Source: a virus
Lineage: Duplodnaviria; Heunggongvirae; Uroviricota; Caudoviricetes
Virus record (IMG/VR): IMGVR_UViG_2609459861_000003
Span: 1-14,270 of that record
Length of the DNA: 14,270 nucleotides
Strand: one strand, 5' to 3'
This document shows, one piece after another, positions 1 to 14,270 of this stretch. Position 1 is the stretch's first letter; every line of letters starts with the position of its first letter. A model generated the notes under the pieces. It made no database searches and was not told where the DNA came from. It saw nothing but the letters and a program-made list of their open reading frames with translations. Made by a program: the position numbers and the translations under genes.

Positions 1-1173
1 TCAGGCCTTATGGTGGAAATAATCACTCAGGCGGGAAAACATGCTGCCTTCCCCGACAGATTCCAGGGTAACCAGCGGCCAGTGCGCCACCTGTTTATCA
101 CGGTCGTAAAGTTCAATTTCCCCTACCCGCTGATGGGAGCTAATTGGCGCGGTGAGCTCTTTACCATCAAGGGTATATTTGGCTTTGATATGTGGAATTT
201 CGGCTTTCGGTAGCACCATCCAGAACTCTTGTTCCGTTCCCAGGGCGATATTTTCTTTATCGCCATACCAGATGCGTTCCGTACCGACCTTTTTCCCACG
301 GTGCAAAATTTGCACCGTAGTAAAGTTTTGTTGCCCCCAACGCAGTAATTTTCTTGCCTCTTCCTCACGACCTTTTGCACTGTCAGCCCCCATTACCACT
401 GCAATGAGACGACGCTGCCCATCTACAGCCGAAGCAATGAGGTTAAAACCGGCACCAGAAGTATGACCCGTTTTCAGGCCGTCAACATTCATGGTTTTAT
501 CCCACAATAACCCGTTACGGTTTTGCTGAGTGATACCGTTCCAGGTGAGGCTTTTCTCACTGTACATATGATAAAACTCGGGCTCGCCGTGGATGATAGC
601 GCGAGAAAGCACGGCTAAATCATAAGCCGAGCTATGCTGGCCAGGTGCATCCAGACCATGCACTGTTTCAAAATGCGTATCCTTGAGATGCAGCTTCTCG
701 GCATAGTTGTTCATCATTTCAACAAACTGCCGTTGCCCACCGGCAATATAGTCAGCCAGAGCAACACAAGCGTCATTTCCGGAATCCACAATTAAACCAC
801 GGCTTAAATCACGTACCGATACGCGATCGCCCTCTTTCAAAAACATCAGTGAAGAACCGACAAACACCGGATTATCTTTCGCCCACGCATCACGCCCCAC
901 GGTGACAATATCGTCTGGCGTAATGCGATGACTATCGATAGCGCGATCCACGACATAACCCGTCATCAGCTTTGTCAGGCTGGCGGGATTGCGCTGTTGA
1001 TGCTCATTACCCGCGGTGAGAATCTGACCGGTGGTGTAATCCATCAGTACCCAGGACCCGGCTTGAATCTGTGGAGGCTGAGGTGAAAAAGGAATGTTTT
1101 CCGCCGCAAAACCAGACGATAAGTTAAAAACGAACAAAGAAGCGGCAATAATAAGACGGCGTTTCAACAGCAA
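1..1173 (-). CDS. dacD: D-alanyl-D-alanine carboxypeptidase DacD (PBP6b), S11 serine peptidase
   Basis: Complete 390-aa ORF with stop at 1-3. N-terminal signal-peptide-like segment; SxxK (SLTK), SGN and KTG active-site motifs of class A low-MW PBPs. Distinct from DacA/DacC as recalled. Divergent neighbour is sbcB, as at the E. coli dacD locus. Confidence 0.85.
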   Translation of the reverse strand: MLLKRRLIIAASLFVFNLSSGFAAENIPFSPQPPQIQAGSWVLMDYTTGQILTAGNEHQQRNPASLTKLMTGYVVDRAIDSHRITPDDIVTVGRDAWAKDNPVFVGSSLMFLKEGDRVSVRDLSRGLIVDSGNDACVALADYIAGGQRQFVEMMNNYAEKLHLKDTHFETVHGLDAPGQHSSAYDLAVLSRAIIHGEPEFYHMYSEKSLTWNGITQQNRNGLLWDKTMNVDGLKTGHTSGAGFNLIASAVDGQRRLIAVVMGADSAKGREEEARKLLRWGQQNFTTVQILHRGKKVGTERIWYGDKENIALGTEQEFWMVLPKAEIPHIKAKYTLDGKELTAPISSHQRVGEIELYDRDKQVAHWPLVTLESVGEGSMFSRLSDYFHHKA

Positions 1174-1375
1174 ACCCTCAGGAGTTTCAAATAGCTGTTC
1201 TTTTTACGGAAATACTTATGAACTGGCTGGAATAAAGTGCAAGAAAATGTGACTACCCTCCCATTTTTATCTGACATGATCTGTTGCCACTCGCTGTCAA
1301 ATTATCGCGCTAAAGCTGATTAGCACGGTGATATTTGATACTCTGGCAGACAGCAGAAATAACGGATTTAACCTA

Positions 1376-1438
1376 ATGATGAATGACGGTAAGCAACAAT
1401 CTACCTTTTTGTTTCACGATTACGCGCAATACCCCTGA
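1376..1438 (+). pseudogene. sbcB: Exonuclease I (sbcB) 5' end interrupted by prophage insertion
   Basis: ATGATGAATGACGGTAAG... encodes MMNDGKQQSTFLFHDY, matching the SbcB N-terminus as recalled (next residues should be ETFG). Here the frame continues AQYP then stops at 1436-1438, so host/phage junction is at about 1424/1425. Confidence 0.6.
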
Positions 1439-1810
1439 GAACCGCCATGAACAAGGGTTTCATGATTTGTGATTTTAGTTTGGTACGCAATTTGGTACAC
1501 AACACAATTTTCACTTCAGCGGGTAGTCATCAAACTCACCATAACGAGCATCGTTAATGATGTATGTGATCACCACAAACATCACATCTGGAATAGTTCC
1601 GTTTTCATGCGCAGGTATTTGTTCACGCCTCCCTTTCTGCAAATCCTAAAGATGAGATTTTGGGGTTTTGGGATATCTTTTATCCTCAGTTCTCTATCCA
1701 TTATGCAAACCAGTAATGAACCATCACCGTGTGATAGTGAGGCATCTGCCACGATAAGCGCAGAGAAATGATGCAGTGGTGGGCGGACTGGCTGGACGAA
1801 AAGACACAGT

Positions 1811-1844
1811 AATCAAAAGCGGCAGGCCACATAAAAAGCCTGCC
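1811..1844 (-). terminator. Putative intrinsic terminator of the LexA-controlled operon
   Basis: Inverted repeat GGCAGGC / GCCTGCC (1821-1827 and 1838-1844) with a 10-nt loop, directly after the stop at 1845-1847; followed on the minus-strand RNA by GCUUUUGAUU. Confidence 0.45.
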
Positions 1845-2162
1845 TTATACCGCTACGCTGTCACTTCTCACATCGATGATGGTGTGTGTCACCACGCCGG
1901 CGACAGTGATATCATCCAGGGCCTCGCCTTCAATCGCTTCGCCGTCTTCAGTAATCAGGGCCCTCCCTCTCAACGTGGCAAGCTCAGTCCCGCCGCCGTG
2001 CTGGATCAGAACCTGACTACCCTGCTTTGGCTTCAGGGAGATATCCAGCACAACATAACCGCCATCCCTTTCGAAAACGCGGGTGTTAGGACCAACATTG
2101 CATATCGAGTTAACGGACAGTCGCTGCTCGACGTAGTCCGCTGCGGGTGAAGGAAAGCCCAT
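1845..2162 (-). CDS. UmuD'-like S24-family protein (HumD-like); Ser/Lys catalytic dyad apparently absent
   Basis: 105 aa starting MGFPSPAADYVEQR, which matches UmuD immediately after its Cys24-Gly25 self-cleavage site (recalled UmuD: ...CGFPSPAADYVEQRIDLN...). C-terminus DDITVAGVVTHTIIDVR parallels UmuD DTLDVFGVVIHVVKAMR. No GDSM serine motif and no aligned catalytic Lys visible by eye. ATG overlaps upstream stop by 1 nt (TAATG). Confidence 0.6.
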   Translation of the reverse strand: MGFPSPAADYVEQRLSVNSICNVGPNTRVFERDGGYVVLDISLKPKQGSQVLIQHGGGTELATLRGRALITEDGEAIEGEALDDITVAGVVTHTIIDVRSDSVAV

Positions 2163-2401
2163 TACAAAACCCTACCCATGTTAGCCATCATCCACAAACG
2201 GTTTTCGCTATGGTCGGTGGTTTTGTCGACAAAGTACGTCTGCTCTCTAGATATCCACGCATTAGCCTCTGAGTCGGTAAAGTGCAGCCCACGCCGGAGC
2301 AGCGCTGACACAAAATCCTTTGTATGCAGATACTGGTAGCCTTTGGAGTTGCGCAATACCGACTCGCGGAAAGCCTGATAGATGTCTGACTGACGGTGCA
2401 T
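2162..2401 (-). CDS. Hypothetical 79-aa protein, first gene of LexA-box operon
   Basis: ATG at 2401-2399 preceded by GGAGGG with 6-nt spacer; LexA box 19 bp upstream; translationally coupled to the downstream UmuD'-like gene. No family recognised. Confidence 0.55.
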   Translation of the reverse strand: MHRQSDIYQAFRESVLRNSKGYQYLHTKDFVSALLRRGLHFTDSEANAWISREQTYFVDKTTDHSENRLWMMANMGRVL

Positions 2402-2419
2402 GATCTTCCCTCCGATGAT

Positions 2420-2439
2420 TACTGTTTTTATATACAGTA
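2420..2439 (-). promoter_or_regulatory. LexA (SOS) box overlapping the promoter of the 79-aa/UmuD'-like operon
   Basis: Minus strand reads TACTGTATATAAAAACAGTA = CTG-N10-CAG with perfect TACTG/CAGTA arms and AT-rich centre (consensus TACTGTATATATATACAGTA). Flanked by a 10-bp inverted repeat TGATCTTCCC / GGGAAGATCA. Confidence 0.7.
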
Positions 2440-2620
2440 GTTTTACTGTAAGGGAAGATCAATAGCTGTTGCGACTATCAATGGTAGTAACCGGAAATGT
2501 TACTGAATCATATGACTTTGTTGGCGTTCAGCCAATGAATTCCATCTGTTGAAGTATTGGCTACGGCACTGGAAGGTTCATTGGTTTGAATGCTCTGCCA
2601 TCAAAGCCTAGTGGTGATTA

Positions 2621-2872
2621 TTAATCAATTATTGAGAAATTGCTCAGGTATGTTTCTTTAGCCAAAGAAAACACATCATCAGGTTCTCCACTGAGAGTTA
2701 CTACGTTGAAATCGAATATTTTATTTTCCTTGCCCTCTCCATCATAAATTCCGATAGCACTGATATAAAGATCTCCATCTTTCACGGTGTCATCTATGTA
2801 GGCAAAACATCCTACCTTCGATTCGCCATAGCGAGAGTTCGTCGATATGTAATCACCTTTCATGTAAGTCAT
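2621..2872 (-). CDS. Hypothetical 83-aa protein, AT-rich, coupled to the tailspike gene
   Basis: ATG at 2872-2870 overlaps the tailspike stop (ATGA overlap); ORF track gives an alternative TTG start at 2884. No family recognised. Confidence 0.45.
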   Translation of the reverse strand: MTYMKGDYISTNSRYGESKVGCFAYIDDTVKDGDLYISAIGIYDGEGKENKIFDFNVVTLSGEPDDVFSLAKETYLSNFSIID

Positions 2873-4203
2873 AGTGTTCCCCAAGCAGCTCTGAAGATGG
2901 AATATGCGTATGCGCTATTTAAATAAGATGTGTAGTCTCCGGCAATATAGTCCTGACTGGATACATCCCATTTCCTTACTACAGCATAGGATGATGTGAC
3001 GCTATAAACTAAATAATAATAACCGTTTATTAGCATGTATTCACCGGCAGACAGTAGCGAGCTCCCCATGGCTATTACTGTTTCTCCAGAAACAATCGTA
3101 TTGTATAGCGAGTAAGCAGGCCCCCAGCCACTGTTGAATGGCAAATTGCCTGTAGCCCGAATGAGGTTATCTTCCCCAGTCGTAGCGGAATACATCATGT
3201 ACGGCGCGGTGAATGAACAGCGATAGTACCTAGTGTTGTTTGCGGATGGCCAACCACGAGGTGTCGTGTTGTACGGTATGCCATCTGTCTGAACTCCGTT
3301 GTAGACCTGCTGAACCATTCTTGTATAGACACATCCGTTAGATTTTTTGGGAACGTAAAGAAAACACCTGCCAATGCTTTCATGGTTATTCACCCCAATA
3401 TCAACGTAAATCATCCCTCCAGTTGTCACAAAGGAGTCAATACAGTTTTTTAGTGTGTTGTTATAAACGCGAGTGTAACCAACTGCATTCTTCCAGCGGA
3501 TGCCCTGGCTGGAGGCAATATCCGCCCCTGTTATCGTGCATCCAATTACAGAACAATTATACGCAGCTGTATTTATCCGGTTAAAGAAAACACCAGAGTT
3601 ACTAAATCCTGAAATACGGCACGAAGATATTGCCACGTTTCCGCATGATTCGATGAACACTCCTACGCTTACATCACGGATAGTGTTATTACTAACAACA
3701 ACATCCTCCGCAACTCCCTGTCCAGATTCGTCAGTTACGTTACCAAAGATATCAATGCCATTATCACCGCAGGAGGCCACGGCACATCCCGTAATGGTCA
3801 TCCCGTTGGGGCGTTCACACTGAATGCCAATATATTCAACGTTGTGAACGTAGCAGTTCATAATTCTTGAGTTAGAACAGCCATAAACCGTATTGTTAGC
3901 TCGGCGTAAATAAATCCCTCCAGAAGTGCTATCTATCGCCTTAACGTTATCAATAGTGACATTATCCGAGTCCAAGATATTAATGCAGGTAATCCCCGTT
4001 CCGGCAGCGGTGCCACGGCTGCCGTTAAGCGTGATCCCCTGAATCTTGCAGTTATCGGCGGCGCCTTCCCAGTTTGTAATGATTGCGCCGCTGGCTGAGC
4101 CAGTAAAATTGCCATCAAGCGTGATTGCTCCGCCGCCCATCAGTGTTACACCACTACGCATACACAGCGCACCTCGACCCGCAGCAACCTCACCAGGTAT
4201 CAA
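2869..4203 (-). CDS. Tailspike/tail-fiber protein fragment with right-handed parallel beta-helix (pectate-lyase-like); N-terminal virion-binding part missing
   Basis: 444-aa ORF rich in Gly/Asn/Ser/Thr/Val/Ile/Cys repeats typical of beta-helix rungs (e.g. NCYVHNVEYIGIQCERPNGMTITGCAVASCGDNGIDIFGN). Frame is open upstream to 4266 with no ATG and no RBS; first listed start is TTG. Abuts the helicase fragment. Confidence 0.65.
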   Translation of the reverse strand: MIPGEVAAGRGALCMRSGVTLMGGGAITLDGNFTGSASGAIITNWEGAADNCKIQGITLNGSRGTAAGTGITCINILDSDNVTIDNVKAIDSTSGGIYLRRANNTVYGCSNSRIMNCYVHNVEYIGIQCERPNGMTITGCAVASCGDNGIDIFGNVTDESGQGVAEDVVVSNNTIRDVSVGVFIESCGNVAISSCRISGFSNSGVFFNRINTAAYNCSVIGCTITGADIASSQGIRWKNAVGYTRVYNNTLKNCIDSFVTTGGMIYVDIGVNNHESIGRCFLYVPKKSNGCVYTRMVQQVYNGVQTDGIPYNTTPRGWPSANNTRYYRCSFTAPYMMYSATTGEDNLIRATGNLPFNSGWGPAYSLYNTIVSGETVIAMGSSLLSAGEYMLINGYYYLVYSVTSSYAVVRKWDVSSQDYIAGDYTSYLNSAYAYSIFRAAWGTL

Positions 4204-4601
4204 AGTTGAATTAGGATTGAGAGTAACGGAGAATTCACCTCCAATGAGAATATTGGTTGGGCCGCTTCACGAACCTGCATTGCATAGGCAACGATGTTTG
4301 CGGCGCTTGGCGTGTTCTTTGCGATCTCAGCGATATAAGCAAAACCGCCAACAGACGCCGTTAACGATTTACGCTCCAGTTCATCGAAAAGCGTCAGGCC
4401 ATCTACTGGCTTTTGCTCCCGGTGCATTCTGGTTATCTCTTCGAAAAGAATTTTGTGTGGTCGGCTGTAAAATGAATCAGGCTTCAGCATCGCCAGAACT
4501 TTCTGGACGCGCTCACTGCTGTCATCATCCAGAAGCAATCCACCAATCACCGCCTGCTCTGCCTCGATGCTATGGGGCGGCGCATAAAAATTATCGGTCA
4601 T
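4200..4601 (-). pseudogene. DnaB-family replicative helicase, N-terminal fragment only (P22 gene 12-like), truncated at deletion junction
   Basis: MTDNFYAPPHSIEAEQAVIGGLLLDD...GGFAYIAEIAKNTPSAANIVAYA matches the DnaB N-terminal domain (E. coli DnaB PPHSIEAEQSVLGG...GGFAYLAELSKNTPSAANISAYA). Only about 115 helicase-like residues, then unrelated sequence and a stop at 4200-4202. RBS GAGG before ATG at 4601. Confidence 0.75.
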
Positions 4602-5481
4602 CGTGTTCACCCTCACGAACTTTCAGGTAGGTATTGTCGTTAAGCAGGAAATCAAATCCCTTTTTGTGCCAGACGGTTCCGCGCTGATGGTTTGGGCGCT
4701 CTTCGAACATCCATCGGCAATTTTCGCCTACGTAGCTCAAATAATTTCTCCAGTCCTGCATCGTGAACCCATGCCCGTCAAGCTGGCGGGTTATCACTCC
4801 GGCTTTGCGCCAGAACGTTCGGATCTGGTTTTTACGCTTGTCATTCAGTGCGCGGATTTTTGGCGCTTCAGGAAGGATTTCGTGGTAAGCATCGACAACA
4901 TCCTGACAGCTAACGGAAGGTTTTTTCTTGTCAGACTTTTTGTCTGCTGCGGTACTCTCTAATACGTCAGTATTAGAGATATTATTTATATTATTGTTTA
5001 TGGACAACCGTTGGACAACCGTTGGACAATCTCCGCTGAGAGCCGCGCCATTACTGGTGTTTGCGTTGGACAACCGTTGGACAACCGTTGGACAATTTTT
5101 TGCCTGAAAATCGTCATATTTAACGATTGTAAACAGGCTAAATTTCTTCCCCATCGAGCAAATATTAAGCATCCCTTTCGACTCAAAAGTCCGCAATAAG
5201 CTCCGAACTTTGTTGTCGGGGATGAATGTTTCTCTGACCAGCGACGGGCGTCCAGTTATCATCTGACCGCGATCAACAGTTATCGGCCCGATATCCGTAT
5301 TGACGACAGTAGATTCGTGATTAGCCTTGAGGATTAAGTGAAGCCAAAGATGTACTGCCTGAGAGTCCTTATAGAGCCTGCTGTCCATAAACTGGCGGTG
5401 TATAGAGACATACCCCATACTGGATGCCTCCTGATGTTGTACAGGGTTATGCCTGTAATCAGCTAACTTAACGACGCCCAT
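4591..5481 (-). CDS. Replication initiation protein, lambda O / P22 gp18 analogue, with origin iterons inside the gene
   Basis: 296-aa ORF with GGAG RBS before ATG at 5481; located cII -> O -> helicase as in lambdoid phages; contains the iteron cluster. Sequence unlike lambda O. Confidence 0.7.
   Translation of the reverse strand: MGVVKLADYRHNPVQHQEASSMGYVSIHRQFMDSRLYKDSQAVHLWLHLILKANHESTVVNTDIGPITVDRGQMITGRPSLVRETFIPDNKVRSLLRTFESKGMLNICSMGKKFSLFTIVKYDDFQAKNCPTVVQRLSNANTSNGAALSGDCPTVVQRLSINNNINNISNTDVLESTAADKKSDKKKPSVSCQDVVDAYHEILPEAPKIRALNDKRKNQIRTFWRKAGVITRQLDGHGFTMQDWRNYLSYVGENCRWMFEERPNHQRGTVWHKKGFDFLLNDNTYLKVREGEHDDR
4960..5097. repeat. Phage replication origin: two clusters of three 11-bp iterons (GTTGGACAACC, GTTG/CAAC dyad) plus adjacent AT-rich unwinding region
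   Basis: Direct repeats at about 5000-5029 and 5065-5095 with exact 11-bp periodicity; AT-rich stretch 4960-5000 immediately downstream in the direction of O transcription. Confidence 0.7.
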
Positions 5482-5639
5482 GTTTCACTCCTGCTTTGGC
5501 TAGTCTGTAAACACCAACAAGGCGCTCTGCGAACGCCCTGTTATTTGCTGCGGCTACCACTAATCCCTCAGGTGAATCAGGGTGTCGAATCTCTTCTTTT
5601 TCCTGGTATTTCTTACGACGTTTTGTCATAATTACTCCT

Positions 5640-5716
5640 GTGGATTGATCCAGTAATTCCCTCAGAATTGCATATCAATTTGCTTAAAATCCTCGGTGGC
5701 GGCCGGGGATTTTTTC
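5640..5716 (+). ncRNA. oop: oop-like antisense RNA overlapping the cII 3' end
   Basis: Sequence GTGGATTGATCCAGTAAT...CCTCGGTGGCGGCCGGGGATTTTTTCTTT is colinear with lambda oop as recalled (GTTGATAGATCCAGTAATGACC...GGTTGCCGCCGGGCGTTTTTTATT). Terminator hairpin CCUCGG/CCGGGG (5691-5708) plus U-run; candidate -10 CATAAT at 5627-5632. Confidence 0.6.
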
Positions 5717-5958
5717 TTTGTGACTTCATCAAGCGCATACTTAAAAGCCCTGCTAATCGGACTGATGTCTGATGCCATTCCAAAAGCACACAAGACCGAA
5801 GCAATAAATCTCCAGTCCGTTCTGCTTATCTTCGATTCATGACAGCCAATCATCTTTGCCAGACCGCGCTGGGTAAGCGTTGACAGGTTGATGAGTAAAT
5901 CAGTTTCAGCGCGATCAATTTCTCGCTGTGTTGGCTTGCTGTAACTTGCTTGTGTCAT
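5662..5958 (-). CDS. cII: CII-family transcriptional activator (lambda cII / P22 c1 homologue)
   Basis: 98 aa; C-terminus KKKSPAATEDFKQIDMQF parallels lambda CII KKRPAATERSEQIQMEF; position between cro and O; overlapped by oop and by the PRE -35. Confidence 0.8.
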   Translation of the reverse strand: MTQASYSKPTQREIDRAETDLLINLSTLTQRGLAKMIGCHESKISRTDWRFIASVLCAFGMASDISPISRAFKYALDEVTKKKSPAATEDFKQIDMQF

Positions 5959-5967
5959 TTGTTAATT
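5936..5967 (+). promoter_or_regulatory. PRE-like CII-dependent promoter (TTGC-N6-TTGC) directed toward cI
   Basis: TTGCTGTAACTTGC at 5936-5949 overlapping the cII start codon, with candidate -10 TTAATT at 5962-5967; same arrangement as lambda PRE. Confidence 0.6.
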
Positions 5968-6042
5968 TTCCAATAGTGAATAGTTAGTTGAAAGGTATGC
6001 GTGGAAACGCATATGGCCTTAGTTGGTCAGATATATTGGGAC

Positions 6043-6057
6043 TCGCTTTGTCAGCGA
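6043..6057 (-). promoter_or_regulatory. nutR boxB-like hairpin, P22 type (loop GACAA)
   Basis: Minus-strand UCGCU-GACAA-AGCGA between cro and cII; same loop as the nutL hairpin. Confidence 0.5.
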
Positions 6058-6095
6058 CGTAGGACGAATGTCCATTGTGAAAATAGCGGTGTTAC

Positions 6096-6305
<210 letters not shown>

Positions 6306-6393: not shown

Positions 6394-7110
<717 letters not shown>

Positions 7111-7258: not shown

Positions 7259-7738
7259 ATGGATAAAATTAATTACCCACCCCTGTTTGAGCCAGGGTTC
7301 CATGACATGGATGAAGCTGGATTAAAATCGTATTGTGTCGATTGCTTTCCTTCATCATCCAGGCGAGGCATGCTATACTGTAATTTTATACAGCTACTCG
7401 AATCTATTCGAGAATTATCTGCTCAATATGGCTGTTTTACAGAAATATGGGTTGATGGTTCATACACCACGTCTAAACCAGAGCCTGATGATATTGATAT
7501 TTTGTTGGTATGTGACTATAGCAATATAAACTCAATACCTGTCATGCTTCGGGGCCGCGTCGATAATTTGCTTGACCGAAACTACATCAAACAAAACTAC
7601 AAAATTGATGTCCTACTACTCATGAAGAATTTAGATGACCCTAACTATGATTATGAGTACTGGCGTAGCTACTGGCGCGGTTGGTTTGGTTTTGATCGCA
7701 GTGAAAACCCGAAAGGGTTAGTGAGGATTTTTTTATGA
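7259..7738 (+). CDS. Nucleotidyltransferase-fold protein (Pol-beta-like NTase motif), first gene of rex-position cassette
   Basis: 159 aa; helix then FTEIWVDGSYTTSKPEPDDIDILLV, i.e. hG[GS]-x9-DxD with G67-S68 and D78/D80, and a third acidic residue in KIDVLLL (D117). Stop overlaps next start (ATGA). Confidence 0.6.
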   Translation: MDKINYPPLFEPGFHDMDEAGLKSYCVDCFPSSSRRGMLYCNFIQLLESIRELSAQYGCFTEIWVDGSYTTSKPEPDDIDILLVCDYSNINSIPVMLRGRVDNLLDRNYIKQNYKIDVLLLMKNLDDPNYDYEYWRSYWRGWFGFDRSENPKGLVRIFL

Positions 7739-8667
7739 ATGATAAATCAATGTTTAAAAATTGCGATAAACGCATTGATTTCATTCAAAAAGAAGTCGAT
7801 GCAATGAAGCAAAACAAAACCAGGTCCTTTGCTGACATGCTTCTTTATCGCTCCATGGATTCTCATCTGAGCGATTTGAAGGCCGAAAAATTAAAGCAAG
7901 ATAGTCGGCACCCACTTATCGATTTTTTTGAGCTGCGGCTGAAAGGCTCTGAGGTTGACTTTGGCTCTATTCCTTTAGAGCTGCTTGGGGCTATTTCAAC
8001 AAATCTTGCAGCGCTAATACAAAGAGCAACACACAAAATTGCCTCAGGCAAGGACTCAAAAAAAGTTCCCTACGACGTGAAAAGCTCCTTAAACCTCAGG
8101 CTGGCTGATTTATCCCCTGGGTCTACAAAATTGGGCGTCACCTTCTCTACAGGAATAGCAGAATTAGTAGAAACAGTACCCAGCAAGGCTGTAAAAGGCA
8201 TATTCGATTTGTTGTTAAGCGATGACGACAACAACTTCATGAATCACGTCGCTGAAATTGGATACAATTCCACTGTAAGCCTTAAGAGAATCGTAGAGGA
8301 ATGCGATAAACACAACTTAACATTTGATGCAAGTTGGACCGGTCCATTTAGTAATGGCACCAAGGTGGCAACTATTGACTCCAATAAAATTAAGTACTTG
8401 GTGAGTAGACTTACATCAACCATTTCATCCCCTCCCATTACTGAAACGGTTACAGGCGAACTGGTCGTTCTATCCAAATATGGGAAGCTGGAGCTTGATG
8501 TTGGTGGTGAACATTTAAAGGCTTCCTATCCGATTGAAATGCTAGATTTAATACAAAAAAAACACAAGGTCGGACAGATTGTTTCTCTTTTAGTGGAGAC
8601 TACTGAGATTCACAATGATCGCATAGGTCTGTACCGTAAAAACCATCTTGTTAAATCGGTTCTTTAA
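7735..8667 (+). CDS. Hypothetical 310-aa protein, second gene of rex-position cassette
   Basis: Translationally coupled to the NTase gene; AT-rich by eye; no transmembrane segment or known catalytic motif recognised. Confidence 0.6.
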   Translation: MNDKSMFKNCDKRIDFIQKEVDAMKQNKTRSFADMLLYRSMDSHLSDLKAEKLKQDSRHPLIDFFELRLKGSEVDFGSIPLELLGAISTNLAALIQRATHKIASGKDSKKVPYDVKSSLNLRLADLSPGSTKLGVTFSTGIAELVETVPSKAVKGIFDLLLSDDDNNFMNHVAEIGYNSTVSLKRIVEECDKHNLTFDASWTGPFSNGTKVATIDSNKIKYLVSRLTSTISSPPITETVTGELVVLSKYGKLELDVGGEHLKASYPIEMLDLIQKKHKVGQIVSLLVETTEIHNDRIGLYRKNHLVKSVL

Positions 8668-8674
8668 TATCTCA

Positions 8675-8700
8675 CCCGGCCACCGCGCCGGGTTTTCTTT
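8675..8700 (+). terminator. Intrinsic terminator closing the cI/cassette operon (tIMM-like)
   Basis: CCCGGC-caccgc-GCCGGG hairpin followed by TTTTCTTT. Confidence 0.7.
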
Positions 8701-8846
8701 GCCTCACGTTCGCCCCAAAACACATAACCAATTGTATTTATTTGAAAATTAATAGATACAACTCACTAAACATAGCAATTCAGATCTCTCACCTACCAAA
8801 CAATGCCCCCCTGCAAAAAATAAATTCATATAAAAAACATACAGAT

Positions 8847-8909
8847 AACCATCTGCGGTGATGAATTATCTCTAGCGGTGTTGACATAAATACCACTGGC
8901 GGTGATACT
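8847..8909 (+). promoter_or_regulatory. OL3-OL2-OL1 operators and PL promoter
   Basis: OL3 AACCATCTGCGGTGATG (8847-8863), OL2 TATCTCTAGCGGTGTTG (8867-8883), OL1 TACCACTGGCGGTGATA (8891-8907). PL -35 TTGACA at 8881-8886 and -10 GATACT at 8904-8909; near-identical to lambda PL as recalled. Confidence 0.85.
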
Positions 8910-8977
8910 AAACACATCAGCAGGACGCACTACTCACCAGGGCGGTGAATATACAACGATTCAAACATGAATCTACG

Positions 8978-8992
8978 GCGCTGACAAAGCGC
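8978..8992 (+). promoter_or_regulatory. nutL boxB hairpin, P22 type
   Basis: GCGCTGACAAAGCGC: 5-bp stem with GACAA loop, matching the P22 boxB RNA as recalled, about 65 nt downstream of the PL start. Confidence 0.6.
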
Positions 8993-9059
8993 AATAACTG
9001 GTCAGACGAAGAATTCATTCGTCATATGAAAGAATTAATCGGTAACGAAGGAGATATTC

Positions 9060-9230
9060 ATGTCACTTGCAACCACAGTGAAGGAGAGCAAGTTACAGAG
9101 ACGCATGTACACGCAGCAGGCGTTAATGTATCGCCAGAAGGGAGATCGTGAAGGTGTTCGCGTATTTTTAAATGCGGCAAAGACTGAAGTATTAAATCAG
9201 CGTTATTTCCTTGGGCCATGTCCATTCTGA
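9060..9230 (+). CDS. Hypothetical 56-aa protein immediately upstream of erf (position of P22 arf)
   Basis: Not in the ORF track (<60 aa). Strong RBS GGAGAT with 6-nt spacer before ATG at 9060; ends 11 nt before the erf ATG. Sequence not arginine-rich, so not an N-like antiterminator. Confidence 0.45.
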   Translation: MSLATTVKESKLQRRMYTQQALMYRQKGDREGVRVFLNAAKTEVLNQRYFLGPCPF

Positions 9231-9240
9231 GAACAATCAT

Positions 9241-9846
9241 ATGAGCAAAGAATTTTACGCAAGACTGGCAGCTATTCAGGAGAATCTGAACGCGCCAAAG
9301 AATCAGTACAACTCATTCGGAAAATATAAATACAGAAGCTGCGAAGACATTCTTGAAGGCGTTAAGCCGTTACTGAATGGCCTGTTTTTATCAATCAGCG
9401 ATGAAGTTGTGTTGATTGGTGATCGGTATTACGTGAAAGCCACGGCAACTATTACCGATGGCGAAAACAGTCATACGGCAACCGCTCTTGCACGAGAGGA
9501 AGAAAGCAAGAAAGGGATGGATTCTGCACAAGTTACGGGAGCTACAAGCTCTTATGCACGCAAGTATTGCCTCAATGGTTTGTTCGGCATTGATGATGCG
9601 AAAGATGCAGATACAGACGAGCATAAACATCAGCAGAACGCAGTAGCAAAGCAATCAAAACCATCACCTACACCTGAACAGGTTCTAAAAGCATTCACTG
9701 ACGCAGCAATGCAGAAAAACACCGTGGAAGAGCTTAAACAGGCGTTCGCCAAAGCGTGGAAGATGCTCGAAGGCACACCGGAGCAGCACAAAGCGCAGGA
9801 CGTTTACAACATCAGACGAGACGAATTAGAAGGAGCGGCTGCTTAA
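9241..9846 (+). CDS. erf: ERF-family single-strand annealing protein
   Basis: 201 aa from ATG 9241 (track gives upstream TTG at 9211); ERF-like core GKYKYRSCEDILEGVKPLL...DRYYVKATATITDGENSHTATA; location in the PL operon. Confidence 0.75.
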   Translation: MSKEFYARLAAIQENLNAPKNQYNSFGKYKYRSCEDILEGVKPLLNGLFLSISDEVVLIGDRYYVKATATITDGENSHTATALAREEESKKGMDSAQVTGATSSYARKYCLNGLFGIDDAKDADTDEHKHQQNAVAKQSKPSPTPEQVLKAFTDAAMQKNTVEELKQAFAKAWKMLEGTPEQHKAQDVYNIRRDELEGAAA

Positions 9847-10229
9847 TGGCACATTCGATTACTGTAAGACTAAACAAGCCCGCAAGAGAGTTTCAGGCCG
9901 GGGAAAATATCGGATTCAACATCCGTGCTGGCGTTCAGTATTACGATCGCCAGACAAAAAAGAAAGAATGGACAAACTACAGCGCCGTTGTATTTGCCAA
10001 GCCGGGGGCGCAAGCGGATTACTACCGTAGTGTTCTTGTTGAAGGTGGCATTGTAGAAATTACCGGAGAAAACATCAGGGTTGATGTTTATCAGGGGCAA
10101 AATGGTCAATCAATCACTCTTGAATTACTGAATGCGAAGATTGGATTTGCAGCTTCAGGAAACAGCCAACAGCAGCAAAGTAGCAATCATCAAAATCATC
10201 CTGAATACGACGATTCAATTCCATTCTAG
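9846..10229 (+). CDS. ssb: Single-stranded DNA-binding protein
   Basis: 128 aa from ATG 9846 overlapping the erf stop (TAATG). OB-fold-like core and Gln-rich linker ending in the acidic tail DDSIPF, typical of SSB C-termini. Confidence 0.8.
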   Translation: MAHSITVRLNKPAREFQAGENIGFNIRAGVQYYDRQTKKKEWTNYSAVVFAKPGAQADYYRSVLVEGGIVEITGENIRVDVYQGQNGQSITLELLNAKIGFAASGNSQQQQSSNHQNHPEYDDSIPF

Positions 10230-10252
10230 ATTAGCAAAATAAGGATTCCATT

Positions 10253-10549
10253 ATGCCAGCGCCTCTGTATGGTGCGGATGACCAGCGCCGCTGTTCCGGA
10301 AATTCCGTATCGGAGGTGCTGGATAAATTCAGAAAAAACTACGACCTGATAATGTCGCTACCGCAGGAAACGAAAGAGGAAAAGGAATTTCGCCACTGTA
10401 TATGGCTTGCAGAGAAAGAAGAACGAGAGCGAATTTACCAGACATCAATCCGACCATTCCGCAAAGCCACATATACCCACTTCCCTGAATATATCGACCC
10501 GCGCCTGCGTAATTACCGCTCACGCTATGGCGCTATCAGTAATGACTGA
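10253..10549 (+). CDS. Hypothetical 98-aa protein (position analogous to anti-RecBCD abc genes of P22; unverified)
   Basis: AAGGA RBS with 7-nt spacer before ATG 10253; family not recognised. Confidence 0.5.
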   Translation: MPAPLYGADDQRRCSGNSVSEVLDKFRKNYDLIMSLPQETKEEKEFRHCIWLAEKEERERIYQTSIRPFRKATYTHFPEYIDPRLRNYRSRYGAISND

Positions 10550-10559
10550 GGAATTAACA

Positions 10560-10850
10560 ATGAAAACAATGAAGCTAAACATCGACCTCGGAAAATACGT
10601 TATTACCGGAACCAAACACGATCTGATTCTTAGCGAAAGAGGAATTATCAAAGAAGGCGAGAATGCAGGGAAAGAAACACTAAGCCGTATCGGTTATTAC
10701 AGCAAGTTTGAGCATCTGGTTAAAGAATTATGCAACCGTGAAATCCTGTTATCTCAGGCGCAGACGCTACAGGATATTCAGCAGCATATCGAGACTTTAG
10801 GTGTGTCACTTAGCATGGCTATTGACCAGTTCGTGGAGAGTAAATCATGA
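10560..10850 (+). CDS. Hypothetical 96-aa protein
   Basis: GAGGAA RBS with 6-nt spacer before ATG 10560 (in-frame alternative ATG at 10542); family not recognised. Confidence 0.5.
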
Positions 10851-11011
10851 GAGGACTTGCATACAATCCCGGCATTCTTCCGGCAGAAATGATTATTCGC
10901 CAACGCGTAAAGCCAATGCCATCGAGAGAGGAATTGCTTAAGAGAAATTCTTTTCCATCAGTGAATCAAAACAAATATCTGAATGCAATGTGGCGGAGTG
11001 GGAAGAAATGA
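10847..11011 (+). CDS. Hypothetical 54-aa protein (not in ORF track)
   Basis: ATG overlaps the upstream stop (ATGA) and its own stop overlaps the HNH gene ATG (ATGA): coupled on both sides. Confidence 0.35.
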
Positions 11012-11709
11012 AACAAATGTCACTAATTGAGATGGATGGTTTTCTGAAAGGTAAATGCATCCCAAGTGATTTAAAGGTTAACGAAACAAACGCTGAATAT
11101 CTGGTGCGTAAATTTGCTGAAGCGGAGGCCAAGTGCGCGGCGCTGACTGACTTATTTGGCGATGTGAAAGAGATTTTTGGTTTTAAGTATCGCTATTTCA
11201 TCACCTCAAAGGGGCTCATTTTCTCATTGGCCTCTGGAGAACTAAAGCAATTAAACCCAACCATGCGCGGTAAGAACAGAAATCAGTATTTATTCGTTAG
11301 GCTGGAGTTTGAAGGAAAACTAAAAGGCGTGAACATCCACCGATTAGTTGCTGAAAACTTTCTCGGCCCTAAGCCTTCTGATGAGCACGTAATTAACCAT
11401 ATAGACGGGAATAAACAAAACAATGATGTTTCAAACCTGGAGTGGACGACGGTAGCGGGCAACACTCAGCACGCATATAGAACAGGTCTGGCCGGGGGAA
11501 GAAAACACGGATCGTATAAAGGTCCAGTCTGCGCTGAGAACGAGGAAGGTTTTGGGTATGTGTTCTTTGACAGCAAACAGGCCATCGAGGCTGGATTTAA
11601 CCCAAACTCAATCAGGGACGCTGTTGTTAAGCCATGGAAGAAAGTATTCGGATTCTATTTTAGTCGCATCAATACCGATGCCCAGCTTCGCAAAGGAGGC
11701 AACCAGTGA
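11008..11709 (+). CDS. HNH endonuclease (homing-endonuclease-like)
   Basis: 233 aa from ATG 11008; HNH motif region [31 protein letters not shown]. Confidence 0.75.
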
Positions 11710-12296
11710 GCAAGATTGATTATCAAAAGCTTCGTGAAATCGCTGAAAAAACAAAAATTGCCGGTGAAGCACCTGTAATGCCTTTCGATCAGCGAATTAA
11801 TGCGCTTAACGATTTTATGAAGCACTTTTCGCCAGATATCGCGCTGGCATTGTTGGATGAACGGGAAAGGAACCAGCAATACATAAAACGCCGCGACCAG
11901 GAGAACGAGGATATTGCACTAACGGTATGGAGGCTGCTAATCGAAAACGGCCAGCTTGTTGCCGATACGCTACGCCACTTAGCTGATAACGAAATCGACT
12001 CTGATTATTTTGCTATCACCTCAACGAATGAGAACGGTACTGAAATTGATCATGAGATGGCTATTACCGATTACGCACTGCAAGCTGCCGGAACTGTAGA
12101 CGAATTGGTTGCGGCGCTGGAATCCGCAGAGAATCGCATAGCAGAACTGGAGGAGCGGGAAATACTGCTCCCGGAACGTAGCAGCATGCTTCATCGAACA
12201 GATTTTCACGAGGATTACCAAACGGTAATGGCATACAAAGTTTCTGAAGTCATCGCTGCAATCCGCTCCGCTGGCATTCGCATCAAAGGAGAGTGA
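11706..12296 (+). CDS. Hypothetical 196-aa protein with coiled-coil segment (possibly Ead/Ea22-like)
   Basis: GTG start at 11706 overlapping the HNH stop, preceded by AGGAGG with 6-nt spacer; acidic coiled-coil segment ESAENRIAELEEREILL. Confidence 0.5.
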   Translation: MSKIDYQKLREIAEKTKIAGEAPVMPFDQRINALNDFMKHFSPDIALALLDERERNQQYIKRRDQENEDIALTVWRLLIENGQLVADTLRHLADNEIDSDYFAITSTNENGTEIDHEMAITDYALQAAGTVDELVAALESAENRIAELEEREILLPERSSMLHRTDFHEDYQTVMAYKVSEVIAAIRSAGIRIKGE

Positions 12297-12297
12297 G

Positions 12298-12489
12298 ATG
12301 GACGGACAAATATCAATCGTTCGACCAGGAGCATGTGACGATCGCGAAATACGAATAATTATTCGTCTGGCAATGGGGAAAGCAATAACTGCTCTCATTA
12401 CCCCAGAAAATCTCGCATTAGCATTAACAGGAAAGTCAGCCCTGCCAGTAGAGCTAAAGCTGCGAAATGTTGAGATTAAGGTGAAATAG
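12298..12489 (+). CDS. Hypothetical 63-aa protein
   Basis: AGGAGAG RBS before ATG 12298; 1-nt gap from the upstream stop. Confidence 0.45.
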   Translation: MDGQISIVRPGACDDREIRIIIRLAMGKAITALITPENLALALTGKSALPVELKLRNVEIKVK

Positions 12490-12491
12490 CT

Positions 12492-13163
12492 ATGACCACT
12501 ATTACCAAAGAACGTATCGAATTATTCATTAAAAATCCGCTTGAAAACGGGCTTACTCGTGGCGAACAAATGGAACTGGCACGAATTGCACTGACATCAC
12601 TGGAACGCGAACAGATTCGCCACGAGCATGCCAAATGGTCGGACTCCACATTTGGCTGCGTTGGCCCCATTGGTCCACTGAAACACCTCTCAAAAGAGGC
12701 ACTGGAAGCCGCAGCCGAACCAGACGATCTTAGCGAGTGGGCTGATATGCAGTTTCTGTTGTGGGATTCACAGCGCCGTGCTGGCATCAGCGATGCTGAA
12801 ATTACCGCTGCTATGGAAGATAAATTGAAGATCAACATGGAGCGCCAGTGGCCTGAGCCAAAAGATGGTGAGCCTCGCTTGCACATTAAAGAACCCGGCA
12901 ACTCTCCGGTAATTCCGGATGGTTGGGTCATGGTGCCGAAGAGACTAACAGCCGAGAACGGCGCTAAGGGTGTGCTATCCGGTGAATTTTCAGAAACTAC
13001 GTTTATAAGCTGCCCGGAATGCTTTGGTGATGATGATTGCGAAACTTGTGACTGTAGCGGGAGAATCGAAATCAAGGTTCCAGTCAGTTGGACAACTATC
13101 AAAACTATTTGGGCTAAAGGGTGTGAGCACTTTTCAATAGTAGCACCGCAGCAAGATGGGTGA
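12492..13163 (+). CDS. Putative MazG-like nucleotide pyrophosphohydrolase domain protein (DUF550-like) with Cys-rich C-terminal region
   Basis: 223 aa; acidic helix pattern LSKEALEAAAEPDDLSEWADMQFLL reminiscent of MazG-type dNTP pyrophosphohydrolases common in prophage early regions; C-terminal CPECFGDDDCETCDC. Assignment from memory only. Confidence 0.45.
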   Translation: MTTITKERIELFIKNPLENGLTRGEQMELARIALTSLEREQIRHEHAKWSDSTFGCVGPIGPLKHLSKEALEAAAEPDDLSEWADMQFLLWDSQRRAGISDAEITAAMEDKLKINMERQWPEPKDGEPRLHIKEPGNSPVIPDGWVMVPKRLTAENGAKGVLSGEFSETTFISCPECFGDDDCETCDCSGRIEIKVPVSWTTIKTIWAKGCEHFSIVAPQQDG

Positions 13164-14078: not shown

Positions 14079-14270
14079 ATGACCGATACCAGCCTGATTC
14101 CTGAGAAAGAAGTGATGAACAAGCTCGGTGTTTCATCACGTCAGACAATCTGGAACTATACCAAACGGCATGGATTTCCGAAGCCAGTCAGAACCCACCC
14201 CAAATCATACCTTCGTGAAGCTGTTGAAGGGTGGATTCTTAACGGTGGCGTTAATCAGAAATGCTCCTGA
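14079..14270 (+). CDS. xis: Excisionase / AlpA-family helix-turn-helix DNA-binding protein
   Basis: 63 aa; GGAG RBS; HTH-like VMNKLGVSSRQTIWNYTKRHGFPKP; position at the end of the early-left operon where xis-int normally lie; stop at the window edge. Confidence 0.7.
   Translation: MTDTSLIPEKEVMNKLGVSSRQTIWNYTKRHGFPKPVRTHPKSYLREAVEGWILNGGVNQKCS

Follow-up and report, generated by a model that had tools for sequence, protein, structure and literature searches.

Three kinds of DNA joining described previously come close to what is seen at the locus examined here. The genome papers on HK97/HK022, HK620 and Sf6 are said to report mosaic joints that lie inside lambdoid genes, at the boundaries of domains; the usual interpretation is that they arose rarely and long ago and were kept by selection. 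Illegitimate recombination in lambda lysogens, the process that forms lambda-bio/Spi- phages, has reportedly been explained by Ikeda and co-workers with a DNA-gyrase subunit-exchange model. The serine DNA invertases Cin, Hin and Pin have the central dinucleotide AA and recombine with quasi-sites. We compare with these a stretch of DNA of 14,270 nucleotides (nt) from a viral record, IMGVR_UViG_2609459861_000003 (the whole stretch is called the window below), which holds nearly all of a defective prophage of the P22-like kind, carried by E. coli 2-210-07_S3_C1 between sbcB and dacD. In this prophage the beginning of a DnaB-type helicase gene is joined to the body of a tailspike gene, and we conclude with high confidence that the helicase end of the join, after nt 336 of the gene, is a genuine breakpoint hot spot and not a random endpoint.

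The remnant itself is a further example of the well-known defective lambdoid/P22-like prophage kind, and the scar alone would make it an ordinary one. The surprising part is the breakpoint. A single phosphodiester region of a helicase gene that HK620, Sf6, HK022, Stx phages and many prophages have in common has taken part in about 20 deletions or rearrangements, and in a base-perfect inversion. We found no description of a hot spot at nt 336 in the searchable literature, a search to which most papers in subscription journals were external.

The helicase-tailspike junction

The window is contained, letter for letter, in NCBI contig JNQH01000035.1 (GCA_000704205.1, E. coli 2-210-07_S3_C1), and its helicase and tailspike frames both lie on the minus strand. 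Nucleotides 1-336 of the helicase gene (window 4601-4266) are joined to nt 512-1911 of the tailspike gene (window 4268-2869), with GAA shared by the two parents at the join and no long homology; the crossover falls within the AA of helicase nt 335-336. On the helicase side, the frame starts MTDNFYAPPHSIEAEQ and runs for 112 residues of the DnaB-type N-terminal domain, ending SAANIVAYAMQVRE, after which 21 out-of-frame codons (AAQPIFSLEVNSPLLSILIQL; window 4265-4203) are read from tailspike DNA. Pfam family PF00772 covers residues 8-112 over profile positions 2-103 of 103 (E = 2.8e-32), showing the N-terminal domain to be present. What is kept amounts to 336 of 1437 nt, or 112 of 478 codons, and the C-terminal RecA-type ATPase domain is gone together with its Walker A motif, which reads GARPKMGKT in the intact 478-residue protein. 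Window 4266-4620 is 95-99% identical to the P/helicase gene of HK620, HK022, Sf6, VT2-Sakai and 80 other phage records, HK620 P matching the helicase side at 98.9%. The P22 gp12-type DnaB-like helicases of the four named phages are the closest known counterparts of the fragment, with 98-99% identity over the first 336 nt and an O gene that overlaps the helicase start in the same manner; they differ from it in that the window keeps the N-terminal domain only, and so holds a gene fragment and not a helicase.

On the tailspike side, the frame is closed by a TGA at 4267-4269 and open from 4266 to 2869. Over window 3900-4268 it is 100% identical to the 636-residue tailspike of E. coli HS, and a Pfam Beta_helix match (E = 8.3e-13) indicates that the right-handed beta-helix body is present. 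The junction offers this fragment neither a start codon nor a ribosome-binding site, and the N-terminal head-binding domain is missing. An earlier note on this DNA, made from the sequence alone, had described a helicase-like frame cut short by a stop at 4200-4202 and a second frame opening at 4266 into tailspike sequence without start codon or ribosome-binding site; the reading frames, Pfam and the match to HS bear out both statements. It had placed the scar at 4200-4270. The scar is real, and its exact position is 4266-4268, the stop at 4200 merely ending the frameshifted read-through. The alignment to intact relatives that it proposed, for mapping the breakpoints and looking for microhomology, yielded both breakpoints and the shared GAA.

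The extent of the loss is given by strain XJ23PTE1, whose sbcB-dacD site is occupied by a P22-like prophage that is intact and has the O, helicase and tailspike alleles of the window. Window 4266-6101 aligns to positions 14936-16772 of the XJ23PTE1 locus (L007) and window 1-4268 to positions 42556-46822, the latter block being 99.6% identical as a whole, so that relative to XJ23PTE1 a segment of 25,786 bp is missing. It comprised helicase nt 337-1437, an HNH gene, ninB through Q, and two tRNAs; the holin, endolysin and Rz genes; the terminase, portal, scaffold and coat genes; gp4, gp10, and the needle and ejection proteins; immI; and tailspike nt 1-511. The HNH gene, directly after the helicase in XJ23PTE1 (L007 17955-18566), is unrelated to the HNH gene of the window. 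The remnant parts are collinear with XJ23PTE1 and follow the P22-like (Lederbergvirus-type) order of int, xis, early left genes, immunity, O/helicase, nin, Q, lysis, packaging/head, ejection, immI and tailspike beside the chromosomal att, the middle of this order being absent through the deletion. Between 4268 and 4266 there are no genes for Q, lysis, terminase, portal, coat or ejection functions. The integrase (called at L005 1-351) and sbcB come immediately after the end of the window. The entire remnant can therefore be surveyed, and it lacks late genes: the contig from the sbcB-side int to dacD holds nothing beyond the remnant genes listed in Table 1, and no complete morphogenetic, lysis or replication module.

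The helicase-tailspike join is therefore almost certainly a deletion scar left by one recombination event. The proposal that a single deletion removed the whole late region agrees with the XJ23PTE1 breakpoints, between which there is only late or nin DNA, and intact late genes nearby, which would have spoken against it, are absent from the contig between int and dacD. That the two pieces are not contiguous in the cell and were joined by the assembler can be practically dismissed. The source is a short-read draft assembly, and many contigs of the SKESA type stop at helicase nt 332, so the region does trouble assemblers. However, the overlap of 3 nt is far below any k-mer size, and a k-mer assembler cannot make such a join by itself. 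The identical junction is found in both the NCBI assembly and a separate Logan assembly of SRR1186800 (which contains a 600-bp junction sequence), and comparable junctions occur in RefSeq assemblies of complete-genome level. The identical 133-residue fusion protein is also on record from the strain (KDX53772.1), and looking it up by exact match led to two records, the NCBI contig and the Logan assembly. Elsewhere the join was not seen: a DNA search of 5,426 complete E. coli genomes did not find the junction, and a scan for the exact junction patterns gave 0 matches in genome, viral and metagenome contig collections.

Recurrent breakage after nucleotide 336 of the helicase gene

The complete genomes CT02, P13-6 and MRE162 each carry an annotated DnaB N-terminal domain pseudogene of equal length to the fragment in the window. 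All three helicase pieces end CAGGTTCGTGAA (CGCGAA in MRE162) and break after the same nucleotide as the window, to be followed by the interior of a portal gene in CT02, by the Ser/Thr phosphatase gene just before Q in P13-6, and by the P63C-domain gene of immI in MRE162. MRE162 also has a 788-bp deletion within O (L010 4341-4440).

For a census of such truncations the 112-residue fragment was searched in a large protein collection, the members of the clusters found were read, and distinct tails were counted by script. Many short proteins are identical through AYAMQVRE and then diverge. Fourteen distinct tails begin at residues 112-114, and in the DNA all of these break at nt 336, any further residues in common being coincidental. 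Elsewhere before the site one tail each begins at residues 79, 83, 89, 104 and 110; after it three begin at residue 131 (nt 393), one at residue 134 and two at residue 185. Junctions recognised from DNA, beyond the protein list, are those of CT02, P13-6, MRE162, an IMG/VR contig (L025) and two distinct junctions that encode a proline followed by a stop. Taken together, the protein census and the DNA-level cases (which include L011, L013, L014 and L021-L025) give about 20 distinct junctions at helicase nt 336. The endpoint is thus not free of a particular nucleotide, as that of an ordinary microhomology deletion would be.

The partners joined to this position include P22 gp16, gp4, portal and tailspike genes, Mu-type baseplate genes, siphovirus tail genes, RusA, the nin region and three places within the helicase gene itself. 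The differing right-hand partners exclude descent of the junctions from a single event, and the upstream immunity regions vary from case to case, which implies that the prophages are independent. Among isolated phages with the gene the helicase is full-length in 87 of 87, and in 367 of 388 complete genomes carrying the gene 80% or more of its length is retained. When helicase residues 113-224 were searched as a protein, just 9 proteins came up, all of them short, and none was clearly a fusion at residue 113. A 19-mer scan of genome contigs gave 10 matches, in lactobacilli, Bacillus and metagenome-assembled genomes, all without flanking similarity and attributable to chance.

The break falls within GTGAA/ACCG (the slash marks the break), in which AA is helicase nt 335-336, and AA stands directly 5' of the junction in every partner with readable parental or near-parental sequence, the set to which this rule applies. 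The partner 5' sequences are GGAA in the tailspike, GTAA in the portal, TTAA in the terminase region, GTAA in the baseplate and CCAA in nin, and for partners internal to the helicase gene CGTGAA, GGTGAA, GCAA and GAAA; the third base before the junction varies freely. On the other side, C at +2 and G at +4 are each present in some 10 of the 16 partners counted, where a frequency of 0.25 would be expected after AA in the prophage; this preference weakly echoes the site's own AA/ACCG. The 9-mer GTGAAACCG occurs twice in the helicase gene, at nt 332 and at about nt 1277-1285, and the second copy is also a breakpoint (nt ~1281), in L023 (3445-3490). A further exact breakpoint lies after nt 393 (CTCTAT/TCCCGCAA; L018, L019 and L020), with a lambda-type portal gene, a P22 scaffold gene and a tail-fibre region as its three partners, and residue 185 (after FDPS) is possibly another, with two partners (P0101 and P0107). 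The prophage shows no enrichment of CCGCAAYGGAA, a sequence located 3' of hot spots A and B (3 matches, with 1.7 expected).

One contig, L022, carries an inversion with an end at this site. Its order is helicase 1-336, the reverse complement of baseplate 2934..933, the reverse complement of helicase 1019..335, and then baseplate from 2933 onward, starting at the very next base. The parents CG(T/C)GAA/ACCGC and GCAGTAA/GCAGC have given the products GAA/GCAGC and GTAA/ACCGC; both junctions are exact, with 0 bases gained or lost, and each arm keeps its own base in front of AA. Judged as site-specific recombination, the junctions have a fixed crossover in AA and identity over a short core, and L022 alone is reciprocal; cognate sites with recognisable arms are lacking, the partners sharing only AA and the weak +2/+4 preference.

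In the protein, nt 336 corresponds to the last residue (112) of the Pfam DnaB N-terminal domain. A comparison of the Salmonella and E. coli helicase alleles gives 66-73% identity over nt 1-336 and 94-97% from nt 337; nt 336 is a mosaic joint between helicase alleles as well.

In more than 200 NCBI draft assemblies, with varied cI/cro types upstream, a contig stops at helicase nt 332 (L026-L031, locus position 2832). These ends suggest the boundary of a repeat or polymorphism in many strains, and could reflect a second, partly identical helicase copy or heterogeneity of the population at the hot spot. A separate peculiarity of the gene is found in E. coli PK5 (L016 2170-3198) and STB20-1 (L017 2170-3198), where an unannotated in-frame insertion of 1029 bp at helicase nt 669 adjoins the Walker A motif and RefSeq calls both halves of the gene pseudogenes; the insertion is probably an intein with a homing endonuclease.

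Possible causes of the recurrent break

The explanation that we favour, and to which as a whole we would assign a probability of roughly 60%, combines the deletion scar and the hot spot with a conservative exchange of strands and a favoured loss of the late region. A recombinase-like or topoisomerase-like enzyme would cleave preferentially at GTGAA/ACCG in a conservative break-and-rejoin reaction, the strands would be exchanged with a second site of which little would be required beyond the same AA dinucleotide, and selection would favour cells whose lethal late region had thereby been lost or crippled. Taken on its own, conservative enzymatic exchange as the cause of the hot spot is a tentative proposal, for which we put the odds a little below even. 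It is possible, and distinctly more doubtful, that GTGAA/ACCG is a true recombination site of such an activity, of host or phage origin, that would swap the O-matched N-terminal helicase module between lambdoid and P22-like phages and would repeatedly disable prophages through deletions or inversions running rightward from the site; within that reading, module swapping would give rise to the observed mosaic joint.

The same observations have to be set against other causes. A one-off illegitimate deletion mediated by microhomology, with random endpoints and a helicase site that is in no way special, would suit the merely 3 nt (GAA) common at the junction, the plain 5-nt microhomology event that made the second deletion in the window, and the abundance of scarred defective prophages such as E272 at sbcB-dacD, but it is very improbable given some 20 independent junctions, with varied partners and immunity regions, at one nucleotide, the AA in all readable partners, and the exact reciprocal inversion of L022. 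Template switching, in which a rightward fork from the origin in O would stall or run off at nt 336 at a hairpin or nick and the 3' GAA would re-prime downstream on 2-3 nt, would account for a left end that is constant, a right end that is variable and always downstream, and microhomology at the 3' end of the retained strand. A 7-bp hairpin (TGCaGGTT-CGTGA-AACCGCA) does overlap the site, which lies some 0.7-0.8 kb right of the annotated HK620 origin. We nevertheless consider this account unlikely: the DNA around the site folds no more stably than shuffled sequence (z = 0.16 and 0.09), slippage local to a fork should not bridge as much as 26 kb, and one-ended switching does not yield a base-perfect reciprocal inversion.

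A sequence-specific endonuclease, perhaps a phage HNH enzyme or a restriction or defence nuclease, might instead cut at GTGAA/ACCG and leave the ends to be joined. HNH genes are present in these prophages (beside the XJ23PTE1 helicase and at window 11008-11709), the motif occurs twice in the gene with both copies serving as breakpoints, and persistent cutting would select for loss of the site. Yet E. coli resects both ends of a break, whereas across some 20 events 0 bases are lost from the helicase end, both the left half-site and AA are restored, and no nucleotide was lost at the L022 junctions. In view of this complete retention, and of the perfect inversion, a double-strand break repaired by end joining is a poor fit; no nuclease has been linked to the site, neither HNH gene could be connected with the hot spot, and we regard this account as improbable. 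Selection on the protein would require no special mechanism if the only truncations tolerated, or useful (for instance as a decoy against superinfecting phages), were those that leave exactly the folded N-terminal domain. The break does coincide with the end of the Pfam domain, and the fragment has its own start and lies downstream of O, but protein-level selection cannot fix a nucleotide, the junk tails after residue 112 vary in length between 1 and about 60 residues, truncations at residues 113-130 would do equally well and are absent, and the AA rule and the reciprocal inversion are features of DNA. This explanation we find barely credible.

Several points weigh against the conservative exchange that we favour. 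The site could not be linked with any recombinase or topoisomerase, and the motif does not fit hix/gix/cix/pix, loxP, dif or attC sites as generally described. Microhomology of 2-3 nt is also expected of non-enzymatic illegitimate recombination, and two internal deletions (P0005 and P0016), which have 9 and 6 nt in common with the site, can be explained without a special enzyme. A gyrase cut before G334 would put position 334 in the exchanged overhang, and L022 keeps 334 on its own arm; a gyrase cut before A335 would break the quinolone scission-before-G rule. L022 is the only reciprocal event found, and its inverted segment also bears an older deletion. A pattern for the reciprocal junction, with the right part of the gene retained, had 0 matches in viral and metagenome contigs. 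The census, finally, is a biased sample, since the protein search gave short proteins only.

Other known recognition sequences, as generally described, do not account for the site. The predicted cleavage is 1-5 nt off the crossover, or the flanks are mismatched, for hix/gix/cix/pix, loxP/Cre, XerC/dif, integron secondary sites and the sfx sites of Rci, and likewise for the cleavage preferences of RusA and RuvC. The ends of IS3-family elements and of Mu, the end of the type I-E CRISPR repeat, and Chi fail on position or flanks, and the prophage's own candidate att core, TGTGTACCAAA, is unrelated.

The remnant and its relation to known systems

The genes retained in the remnant are collected in Table 1. 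They match the further expectation of the earlier note that immunity, defence cargo and recombination genes had survived, in the form of cI/cro/cII, the candidate pair PDC-M63A/B, erf and the anti-RecBCD gene.

Table 1. Features of the window (positions in nt; strand of the feature)
Feature	Position	Strand	Evidence or remark
dacD, chromosomal flank at the tailspike end of the prophage	1..1173	-	Annotated in XJ23PTE1 and E272; Pfam Peptidase_S11/PBP5_C
Three small genes 3' of the tailspike	1845-2162, 2162-2401, 2621-2872	-	Same hypothetical genes in HS and XJ23PTE1
Tailspike 3' fragment, nt 512-1911 of 1911	2869..4268	-	Beta-helix body kept; codons 1-170 missing
Truncated helicase open reading frame, 133 residues	4200..4601	-	ATG 4601; stop TGA 4200-4202
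Deletion junction	4266..4268		TTC on + strand, GAA on coding strand, common to both parents; three-way alignment, BLAST overlap, parental contexts
O, replication initiator, 296 residues, HK620/HK022 type	4591..5481	-	O annotated at the corresponding position in HK620
Small open reading frame of the immunity region	5468-5629	-	
cII	5662-5958	-	Pfam Phage_CII; homologues annotated in E272 and R18
cro	6096-6296	-	Pfam Cro; homologues annotated in E272 and R18
cI repressor, 237 residues, lambda-type	6397-7110	+	Pfam HTH_3 and Peptidase_S24; homologues annotated in E272 and R18
DUF6932/PDC-M63A, candidate defence gene	7259-7738	+	PADLOC E = 1.8e-41; Pfam DUF6932
PDC-M63B, candidate defence gene	7735-8667	+	PADLOC E = 7.5e-45; 310 residues, no Pfam family
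Presumed lambda-type pL promoter, TTGACATAAATACCACTGGCGGTGATACT	8881..8909	+	Read from sequence
Second deletion junction	8994..8998		ATAAC, 5-nt microhomology in both parental sites; comparison with E272 and R18
erf	9241-9846	+	ERF translation; Pfam
Anti-RecBCD gene Abc2	10253-10549	+	Pfam
DUF2737 gene and Ead/Ea22	Within early-left block 9241..13163	+	Pfam
HNH homing-endonuclease-like gene	11008-11709	+	233-residue HNH_3 protein; PADLOC HEase/homing-endonuclease models
dATP/dGTP pyrophosphohydrolase	12492-13163	+	Pfam
xis-like helix-turn-helix gene	14079..14270	+	Same 63-residue protein annotated beside the integrase in E272 and XJ23PTE1

From this gene content we infer that replication from its own origin, cell lysis and particle production would all be lost to the remnant, and that it probably still encodes repressor immunity, the candidate defence pair, Erf/Abc recombination functions and Int/Xis. 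Its O gene has repeated CPTVVQRLS motifs, consistent with an origin inside the gene, and in HK620 the corresponding region is annotated with O and a rep_origin. The PDC-M63A/B pair sits between cI and pL, the position of rexAB in lambda, and is also found in strain R18, beside an intact helicase. The three small genes beyond the tailspike have no Pfam or PADLOC match. In E. coli HS the tailspike and the same three genes lie elsewhere in the chromosome (L001 16075-20880), beside a BREX-1 island and a second integrase, and their presence at a different site implies that this tailspike-end module has moved between prophages.

The second junction, just downstream of the sequence that we take to be a lambda-type pL, was found by comparison with E272, to which window 8674-8998 and window 8994-9400 align at L003 14318-14644 and L003 16084-16490. 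Relative to E272 and R18, 1.44-1.7 kb are missing, including the N antiterminator (annotated at E272 L003 14767-15150); nutL/N and their neighbours have gone, and as a result pL now reads almost directly into the kil/erf region. To judge by its sequence this looks like an ordinary short-homology deletion. The scar and this junction together mean that the remnant has undergone at least two deletions.

Should an enzyme-driven hot spot be confirmed, both the rapid inactivation of prophages after integration and the origin of mosaic joints inside phage genes would become directly testable, and if GTGAA/ACCG were a recombination site it would provide a mechanistic route to prophage domestication and modular phage evolution. 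In practical terms, draft assemblies break here, and most of the truncated genes annotated in E. coli as DnaB N-terminal domain owe their origin to the hot spot.

As a defective prophage the remnant is closest to that of strain E272, an independent case of the lambdoid/P22-like kind, which occupies the same sbcB-dacD site, has an internal deletion of the late region, and keeps int/xis, the immunity region and the early-left genes. The two differ in that E272 lost the DNA from O to immI through another junction and retains a whole tailspike, and in that the deletion in the window begins at a breakpoint that recurs in many unrelated prophages. In E272, O is joined directly to the immI region (L003 10846-11685 and neighbours), and an IS2 lies beside dacD.

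The breakpoint at nt 336 resembles topoisomerase-type hot spots, invertase quasi-sites and intragenic mosaic joints, and on testable features it matches none of them. With the illegitimate-recombination hot spots of lambda it has in common non-homologous sites with 0-3 nt of identity, preferred fixed positions, and an exchange that is reciprocal in principle and deletes prophage DNA; it differs in that the crossover is confined to the 2-nt AA and not a 4-nt stagger, position 334 stays on its own arm in L022, and scission before G is not followed. Quasi-site recombination by the invertases is likewise a conservative, reciprocal exchange for which identity at AA is the chief need in the partner and which makes both inversions and deletions. 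The helicase flanks, however, are unlike the AAACC-AA-GGTTT half-sites, the invertases cross over 3' of AAACC whereas the crossover here is inside GAA/ACC, and there is no true cix or pix partner. With the mosaic joints of the lambdoid genomes the site shares a sharp change in the similarity of helicase alleles (~70% to ~95%) at a domain boundary; unlike them, it has been reused, at the same position, for non-functional deletions and inversions.

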